14,276 nt of DNA from Promethearchaeota archaeon (GTDB lineage: Archaea; Asgardarchaeota; Lokiarchaeia; Sigyniarchaeales; SOKP01): NCBI GenBank assembly GCA_016840165.1, contig JAEOSU010000055.1:1-14276 (forward strand). Reading direction: 5' to 3'. Positions within the stretch are counted from its first letter, which is position 1. Each line of letters opens with the position of its first letter. The notes below the pieces were generated by a model. That model was given only the letters and a program-made list of their open reading frames with translations. It made no database searches and was not told the DNA's origin. Made by a program: the position numbers and the translations under genes. Below are positions 6,189 to 7,280 of the stretch, in pieces.

Positions 6189-6836
6189 TTAAAATGAGGA
6201 GTTTCCATACTTAACAAGTTTTAAAAAGATCTTTCGTTTTTTTGGACTGTTTTCATTGTCAATAATATATCCACCTTCAAATGGAGCATGTTTAACAAAA
6301 ATACTTCCAATTTTCTCTAAGATTTTTGTATTTTTGGGATAAAACTGAATAACAATAATCCCATTCGTTTTCAAAGCTAAATAAAAAGATTTTACCAATT
6401 CAATCAAACTCTTATTTTCTGATTTCCCACTAATTTCTCGGTATATCCACTGAAACGCTGATATCGATATAATTGCATCGAAAATGTTTGATTTGATTGG
6501 TAAATGACTCATATCTCCATTGATGGGATTAATTTCAGACATATCATAAATATTCAGGAAACTCTTTATTAAATCAAGTGATACTACTTTAAAACCATGT
6601 TGCTGTAAATAAAATGAAGCAAATCCAGGACCACAACCTGCATCTAGTATTAATTTGTTATTATTATCGAAGTCTAGTAGTTCTAAAACTCTTTTTGTGA
6701 TTTTCTCTTGAATTCTCATCATACTCTTTGAATACGCATAGTCTAAAAGTCTCTGCTTTTTGTAATAATCTCTAACATCCGCATAGATATCTTCTGGTCT
6801 CTTTTTCTTCACATGAAACTTATAATTGAACGACAA
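6189..6836 (-). CDS. bud23: Class I SAM-dependent methyltransferase, Bud23/WBSCR22-like (SSU rRNA m7G methyltransferase homologue)
   Basis: SAM motif ILDAGCGPG plus Bud23-specific motifs in the same order as the yeast/human protein: RPE, RIQEKITKRVLELL (cf. IQAKMTLRALELL), FDAIISISAFQWI (cf. FDAAISISAIQWL), IQFYPKN (cf. AQFYPKN), FEGGYIIDNENSPKKRKIFL (cf. FSGGLVVDDPESKKNKKYYL). TTG start. Confidence 0.85.
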   Translation of the reverse strand: MSFNYKFHVKKKRPEDIYADVRDYYKKQRLLDYAYSKSMMRIQEKITKRVLELLDFDNNNKLILDAGCGPGFASFYLQQHGFKVVSLDLIKSFLNIYDMSEINPINGDMSHLPIKSNIFDAIISISAFQWIYREISGKSENKSLIELVKSFYLALKTNGIIVIQFYPKNTKILEKIGSIFVKHAPFEGGYIIDNENSPKKRKIFLKLVKYGNSSF

Positions 6837-6980
6837 GGACTGAAACCTTTTATTTCATAAATCGAAAATTCATACTAATTAACTTTCACTTTGTTTAAAA
6901 TAATAAATTTTATTAGAATTTAATCATTTCATATGCAAAGTAGATTTGGATAATTAAAATATTGAAGCGTGTGAGTTTTT

Positions 6981-7280
6981 GTGTCAGAAAAGGATGAAAA
7001 GATATTGGTTAGAAAAGCAACACTCAATCTACGAAGGAAATACGGGCGTTCAAAACAAATAAATATTGTAGAAAGGGATTCATTTGTTCCTAAAGCTGTT
7101 GAAAAAGAAATTAGAGAGTCTATTAAAAAGAAAAAATCAATAATAGCTTCAGATATCGCCTTAAAGTATGATATCCGTCTTTCGACCGCAAAAAAATTAT
7201 TAGATCAATATGAAGAGGAAGGATTAATTAAATTATACGATCCTTCATTAAAATTAAAAGTATACGTCCCAAATAATTAA
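6981..7280 (+). CDS. rps25e: 30S ribosomal protein eS25 (S25e)
   Basis: 99-aa basic protein with the eS25 winged-helix pattern KSIIASDIALKYDIRLSTAKKLLDQYEEEGLIKLY...KVYVP. GTG start. Confidence 0.8.
   Translation: MSEKDEKILVRKATLNLRRKYGRSKQINIVERDSFVPKAVEKEIRESIKKKKSIIASDIALKYDIRLSTAKKLLDQYEEEGLIKLYDPSLKLKVYVPNN

Follow-up and report, generated by a model that had tools for sequence, protein, structure and literature searches.

Evidence for an archaeal, catalytic-domain-only Bud23-type methyltransferase encoded head to head with ribosomal protein eS25

In eukaryotes, Bud23 (S. cerevisiae) or BUD23-WBSCR22 (human) works together with Trm112/TRMT112 as the 18S rRNA (guanine1575/1639-N7)-methyltransferase and is a late pre-40S assembly factor (PDB 4QTT/4QTU, 6G4W, 7WT*). 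No Bud23 orthologue was found in Haloferax volcanii or in archaea generally (PMC6144793), and both Bourgeois et al. 2017 and van Tran et al. 2018 report no archaeal homologue and did not see the equivalent nucleotide modified (PMC5372719, PMC6144793); the archaeal 16S rRNAs analysed for this guanine include none from the lineages considered here (PMC5372719). Birikmen et al. 2021 assign BUD23 to 'LUCA' when unfiltered and to 'LECA' with an architecture filter, a result that they do not discuss. In the literature that we searched, no paper links Bud23 with Asgard or DPANN archaea.

The window, i.e., the whole stretch of 14,276 nucleotides that was analysed, is contig C34 of a 3.6-Mb genome (~30% GC, 99.7% complete, 105 contigs). 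Its central features are:

6189..6836, minus strand: Bud23-type class I SAM methyltransferase, paralogue A (Bud23-A), 215 aa from TTG start to stop, catalytic domain only
6837..6980, no strand: divergent intergenic spacer between Bud23-A and eS25, 144 bp
6981..7280, plus strand: ribosomal protein eS25, 99 aa, GTG start; Pfam PF03297 (Ribosomal_S25) at 35.7 bits against a cut-off of 28.8

The translation of Bud23-A contains five motifs: RPE (residues 13-15), IQEKITKRVLELL (residues 42-54), ISISAFQW (residues 123-130), QFYPKN (residues 164-169) and FEGGYIIDNENSPKKRK (residues 186-202). Their joint occurrence is far above chance. The SAM-binding site is intact, with G67, G69 and G71 of the GxGxG motif and D88 all present, and in the joint alignment these residues are conserved in both the archaeal and the eukaryotic groups. 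Pfam Methyltransf_11 matches with 45 bits. A Pfam search of the protein gives no match to the C-terminal WBS_methylT domain (PF12589), and Bud23-A is therefore classed as a catalytic-domain-only member and not as a protein of the full eukaryotic architecture. Across the source genome PF12589 has no match either, and the control genomes of the same search gave none.

In Pfam and NCBIfam, Bud23-A matches generic class I methyltransferase models only, and the top NCBIfam row is BioC at 56 bits against a cut-off of 185 bits. This is expected because no Pfam model covers the catalytic domain of Bud23, and eukaryotic Bud23 representatives obtain the same generic Pfam matches with PF12589 in addition. 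No RsmG model is among the Pfam and NCBIfam matches of Bud23-A. RsmG/GidB, the bacterial 16S m7G527 methyltransferase, has a class I fold and catalyses SAM-dependent N7-methylation of a small-subunit guanine. The chemistry is the same as that proposed for Bud23-A below; however, RsmG/GidB belongs to an unrelated subfamily, modifies a different site in the 530 loop and works without Trm112.

Searching Bud23-A against all PDB chains with phmmer identifies yeast Bud23 (E 2.1e-23) and human BUD23 (1.7e-22) over residues 13-207, a further Bud23-like chain is also among the top matches, and the best chain from outside Bud23 reaches 1.2e-8. The predicted structure gives the same ranking. With the AlphaFold2 model (36 homologues, pLDDT 92.8, pTM 0.90) as query, the top 8 Foldseek matches in the PDB are all Bud23 (E 7e-18, target TM 0.88-0.90, 32-33% identity), and below them come BioC-, PH0226- and NodS-like enzymes at ~1e-9 and TM ~0.5-0.65. 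Bud23-A has the catalytic domain of Bud23 over its whole length, starting with the RPE segment near the N-terminus and ending with the last strand, and it includes the SAM motifs as well as Q43, ISISAxQW and QFYP. BioC/UbiE/TehB-like enzymes have the Rossmann fold and the GxGxG/acidic SAM motifs in common with Bud23-A, but their similarity is limited to the SAM-binding half (E 1e-8 or weaker, TM 0.5-0.65) and they lack the signature residues.

These signature residues were derived from the joint alignment and not from published active-site residues. P14, E15, Q43, S126, Q129, W130, Q164, Y166 and P167 are each present in at least 86% of the A-like archaeal and eukaryotic Bud23 rows, while the same nine positions are found in at most 10% of ten outgroup methyltransferases of the source genome. 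Outside the SAM site, nine to ten positions are common to the A-type archaeal and the eukaryotic proteins and missing from the outgroups. A tree of 87 rows and 203 columns (IQ-TREE, LG+C20+F+G4 PMSF), rooted with 10 other class I methyltransferases of the source genome, separates a Bud23-like clade, including Bud23-A and the eukaryotic Bud23s, from all 10 outgroups (97/84), and no branching of Bud23-A with UbiE/BioC-like enzymes is seen. Within this clade, the Loki group of Bud23-A is supported at 100/95 and the eukaryotic Bud23s are monophyletic at 100/99, where 16 of the 19 rows called eukaryotic were labelled by their C-terminal basic motif and the other 3 by their position in a first tree and their length only. 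All five of the eukaryotic representatives that were tested carry WBS_methylT (PF12589).

The original prediction had described the gene as a Bud23/WBSCR22-type enzyme with Bud23 motifs along the catalytic domain, without the basic eukaryotic C-terminal extension, and head to head with rps25e across 144 bp. Sequence, predicted fold, signature residues and the rooted tree agree on the first point, all five motifs are present in the 215-aa translation, the extension is indeed missing, and the neighbour is confirmed as a divergent eS25 gene by Pfam. It is very likely that the window protein is an archaeal, catalytic-domain-only member of the Bud23 family.

The source genome contains a second gene of this type:

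contig C30:88567-90795 (= L015:4568-6796): Bud23-like paralogue B (220 aa), then a radical-SAM gene, then uS10

Two Bud23-type matches are found in most genomes of the window's family. For paralogue B, too, the best PDB match is Bud23 (3e-16, next family 1e-11), more weakly than for A, and four of its signature residues are altered (E15D, Q129N, W130F and Q164E). By signature residues, the A type is closer to eukaryotic Bud23 than the B type. In the tree, the archaeal sequences form an A-like group (36 rows, 93/91), with the window protein and DPANN-type and Bathyarchaeota-type sequences, and a B-like group (22 rows, 90/85), with Loki B, Odin-like sequences and one other family. Support for a single archaeal clade is weak (80/47), and a single clade of eukaryotes and A-like sequences is not rejected by the AU test (p 0.51). 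A methyltransferase on contig C54 scores 76.8 bits with the profile but groups with the outgroups, which rules it out as a third paralogue.

The radical-SAM protein encoded 3' of B has 378 aa, and its best NCBIfam rows are AmmeMemoRadiSam/activase-like, all far under their cut-offs. In the window's family, the radical-SAM gene follows B in 16/16 loci and uS10 comes next in 12/16, the other 4 reaching the contig end. This neighbour could provide a second activity that modifies rRNA or the ribosome.

Gene order around paralogue A was compared in the best 80 species-level loci of the close Loki clade, with 50-66% protein identity to Bud23-A. A divergent eS25 gene (53-81% identity) lies directly upstream of the Bud23-A orthologue in all 80; these genomes are kin, so the counts describe stability over an order-level group and not independent events. 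Measured from the aligned part of one gene to that of the other, the gap is 99-195 bp, mostly ~148-156 bp. A sister family has the arrangement eS25<->A->B->uS10, apart from one variant that is rearranged, while B has become separated from the eS25/A pair in the window's family. Within 4 kb of the Odin-like loci, eS25 was not found. As for eS25 itself, the NCBIfam S25e models match the ORF at E 9e-9, below their own cut-offs. Its start codon is GTG in the window and TTG in most relatives. The TTG start of Bud23-A is a conserved column in the alignment of 81 spacers. Both divergent genes have non-ATG starts that are conserved across the lineage.

The spacer contains one strongly conserved element:

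6897..6931, no strand: AT-rich spacer core of 35 nt, column frequencies mostly 0.8-0.99 across the 81 aligned spacers

In the flanks outside the core, the column frequencies are mostly 0.3-0.7, and an SD-like GTGAT ahead of eS25 is conserved in the same alignment. Between the core and the two start codons lie 60 nt (Bud23-A) and 49 nt (eS25), and the core probably represents TATA/BRE elements arranged back to back in a bidirectional archaeal promoter. Together with the synteny in 80/80 loci, the conserved core makes a shared regulatory spacer for Bud23-A and eS25 plausible.

Other genes of the window were also observed. A Gtr1/RagA-type GTPase gene (8640-9575, minus strand) identifies the source as an Asgard archaeon, of Loki type by its close homologues. 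In most of the 80 loci this gene stays within ~1-2.5 kb of eS25 and Bud23-A, and the pfkB kinase gene (7554-8630) lies between the GTPase gene and the pair in some loci only. At 9707-11317 (minus strand), a ThiS/Urm1-like small protein adjoins a THUMP/ThiI-like protein.

Eukaryotic Bud23 acts with Trm112, a gene that the original prediction proposed to look for in this genome. Two genes with PF03966 above cut-off are present:

L001:1369-1998, minus strand: long Trm112-like gene 1, 209 aa
L002:1093-1683, plus strand: long Trm112-like gene 2, 196 aa

The two paralogues are 38% identical to each other. Both have a split knuckle, with an N-terminal ILACPIDK and a C-terminal CPxCxRWFPI around a central insert of ~120 aa, and both have only three conserved cysteines. 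Homologues of this long form number 660 in the Loki clade. Compared with A. fulgidus and human Trm112, it matches over the C-terminal knuckle only, and a model of it (pLDDT 82.6) gives weak Foldseek matches, the best being E. cuniculi Trm112 at E 0.04. Gene 2 overlaps tail to tail with a gene for a 251-aa class I methyltransferase (L002:1676-2431).

The 16S rRNA of the source genome contains GGAAUCCCUAGUAAUCG and the GGAAUC motif, with the target guanine in GGAAUCCCUAG; this guanine is universal, and its presence is therefore non-discriminating. We take the second G of GGAAUC to be G1338 in E. coli and G1575 in yeast, with the numbering set via the 1392-1406 primer site. The 3' part of the 16S is on the minus strand of contig C49, less than ~100 nt from the contig end, and the rRNA operon is only partly assembled. 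Archaeal eS25 occupies the top of the head, where its N-tail comes close to the P-site tRNA, and in eukaryotes the N-tail reaches this tRNA (Bourgeois et al. 2025, PMC11698992). The N-tail is thus in the same neighbourhood as the Bud23 target, which makes the gene linkage functionally plausible.

What is directly supported is the family membership, the intact SAM-binding and signature residues, the gene order, the Trm112 homologues and the target guanine. The substrate, the position, the dependence on Trm112 and the co-transcriptional control of Bud23-A are what we infer. We suggest that the best explanation is a Trm112-assisted m7G modification of the P-site guanine of 16S rRNA during head maturation, and we consider it moderately likely. 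Most likely, Bud23-A would catalyse the SAM-dependent N7-methylation of this universally conserved guanine; (i) methylation would occur late, in a still open precursor of the small-subunit head, (ii) the enzyme would probably be held by one of the two long Trm112-like candidates and (iii) Bud23-A and eS25 would probably be transcribed from a common bidirectional promoter region. Both copies are thus linked to proteins of the small-subunit head: A adjoins eS25, and B is followed by the radical-SAM gene and then by uS10. From this linkage to eS25 and uS10, it can also be speculated that the protein may act as an assembly factor in small-subunit maturation, independently of catalysis.

The comparison with eukaryotic Bud23 works in both directions. 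In addition to the catalytic domain, the Trm112-family genes and the small-subunit target guanine are both present in this genome. However, Bud23-A lacks the basic WBS_methylT extension (215 aa compared with 275-281), its host is a prokaryote without a nucleus that has two old paralogues instead of one gene, the archaeal genes adjoin those of eS25 and uS10, and the candidate Trm112 partners are ~200 aa long with a larger central insert. The missing C-terminal domain speaks against the m7G reading, as do Trm112 homologues with a far larger insert, only three cysteines and a weak structural match, and the reported lack of modification at the equivalent guanine in the archaeal 16S rRNAs analysed, which come from other lineages (PMC5372719). 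A second useful comparison is the Trm112 network of H. volcanii (e.g., Hvo_0019; Trm9, Mtq2, Trm11), which likewise consists of small class I methyltransferases of the translation apparatus and whose enzymes are stabilised by the Trm112 zinc-knuckle protein through a beta-zipper (PMC6144793). Its members, however, are of other methyltransferase families, and Bud23-A stands apart from the other methyltransferases of its own genome.

That network also illustrates the most serious alternative, as archaeal Trm112-dependent methyltransferases have many different substrates (PMC6144793). Bud23-A could be a Bud23-family enzyme with another target, such as another nucleotide of 16S or 23S rRNA, a guanine in tRNA, a ribosomal protein or a translation factor, and the ribosomal-protein neighbourhood would then reflect a general link to translation. 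Since two old paralogues co-exist, one or both may have acquired a different target, and it is the B type that is altered at E15, Q129, W130 and Q164. The A type, on the other hand, retains every signature residue that it has in common with eukaryotic Bud23, its predicted fold superposes on Bud23 with TM ~0.9, and the target guanine is universal. For Bud23-A we therefore regard another target as rather unlikely.

An exhaustive representative search gives 1443 matches at E<=1e-3 and 227 at E<=1e-10, consisting of ~65 clusters (50% identity) of prokaryote-style proteins of ~200 aa, after which come the longer Bud23s of eukaryotes. The named short-form members include proteins of Promethearchaeota/Lokiarchaeota as well as of Micrarchaeota, Woesearchaeota and Bathyarchaeota. 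When 400 genomes of the phylum to which the window belongs are searched with a profile (E<=1e-28), the Bud23-type matches are distributed as follows, and a single-protein search agrees:

window's family: 125/134 genomes
three sister families of the order: 18/19 genomes
one further family of the class: 2/3 genomes
Odin-like family (1.4-Mb genomes): 3/4 genomes
one other family: 1/1 genome
remaining families (~230 genomes): 0

In the window's class as a whole, 145/159 genomes have a match. The short Bud23 family is thus old and patchy in archaea. The original prediction had implied an Asgard eukaryotic signature protein, and this part did not hold. The family extends beyond Asgard, with members in Micrarchaeota, Woesearchaeota and Bathyarchaeota, and it is limited to a few groups within the phylum, with none in most other families searched, so an Asgard-specific protein is ruled out. 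The non-Asgard members and the patchiness are additional to the original prediction, and so are paralogue B with its uS10 linkage and the two Trm112-like candidates.

Such a distribution (145/159 in the class, 3/4 in the Odin-like family, one more family and 0 in ~230 other genomes), together with the occurrence in DPANN and Bathyarchaeota, would also fit secondary acquisition, either between archaeal lineages or from early eukaryotes, instead of pre-eukaryotic inheritance. If so, little could be learned from the archaeal genes about how the eukaryotic 40S pathway arose. However, the eukaryotes form one clade (100/99) outside all archaeal groups and no archaeal sequence is nested within it. 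The A-like and B-like archaeal forms are also deeply diverged from each other and make up ~65 clusters at 50% identity, and the gene order is stable over an order-level group, which makes acquisition improbable. Least probable by far is that Bud23-A is a generic small-molecule or lipid methyltransferase (UbiE/BioC/TehB-like) that resembles Bud23 only through the common Rossmann fold: the generic Pfam/NCBIfam models, with BioC as the top NCBIfam row though far below its cut-off, and the NCBI name of its homologues, 'class I SAM-dependent methyltransferase', fit this idea, but eukaryotic Bud23 gives the same generic matches and has no catalytic-domain model in Pfam, the Bud23 match includes the N-terminal region and C-terminal strands outside the SAM site (2e-23 compared with 1e-8), the tree sets the protein apart from 10 generic methyltransferases, and the linkage to ribosomal protein genes holds across the order.

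The novelty of an archaeal Bud23 is tempered by the automatic KEGG-based annotation at JGI, in which many of the short-form proteins are already named '18S rRNA (guanine1575-N7)-methyltransferase'. In its broadest form, our proposal is that Bud23 may be no eukaryotic invention, and that an archaeal Trm112-assisted enzyme may already have marked the P-site guanine. Lokiarchaeia would then keep two ancient copies wired to eS25 and uS10, B and its radical-SAM neighbour would perhaps provide a second modification, and cultured Asgard strains would have m7G in their 16S rRNA, new for archaea. We put this forward tentatively, as a possibility that could well fail. The prediction is testable in cultured Lokiarchaeia, whose family-level relatives carry both paralogues. 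If it is true, one late maturation step of the 40S head and an rRNA mark at the P site would move from 'eukaryote-specific' to 'inherited from archaea', which bears on how far eukaryotic ribosome biogenesis pre-dates the nucleus.
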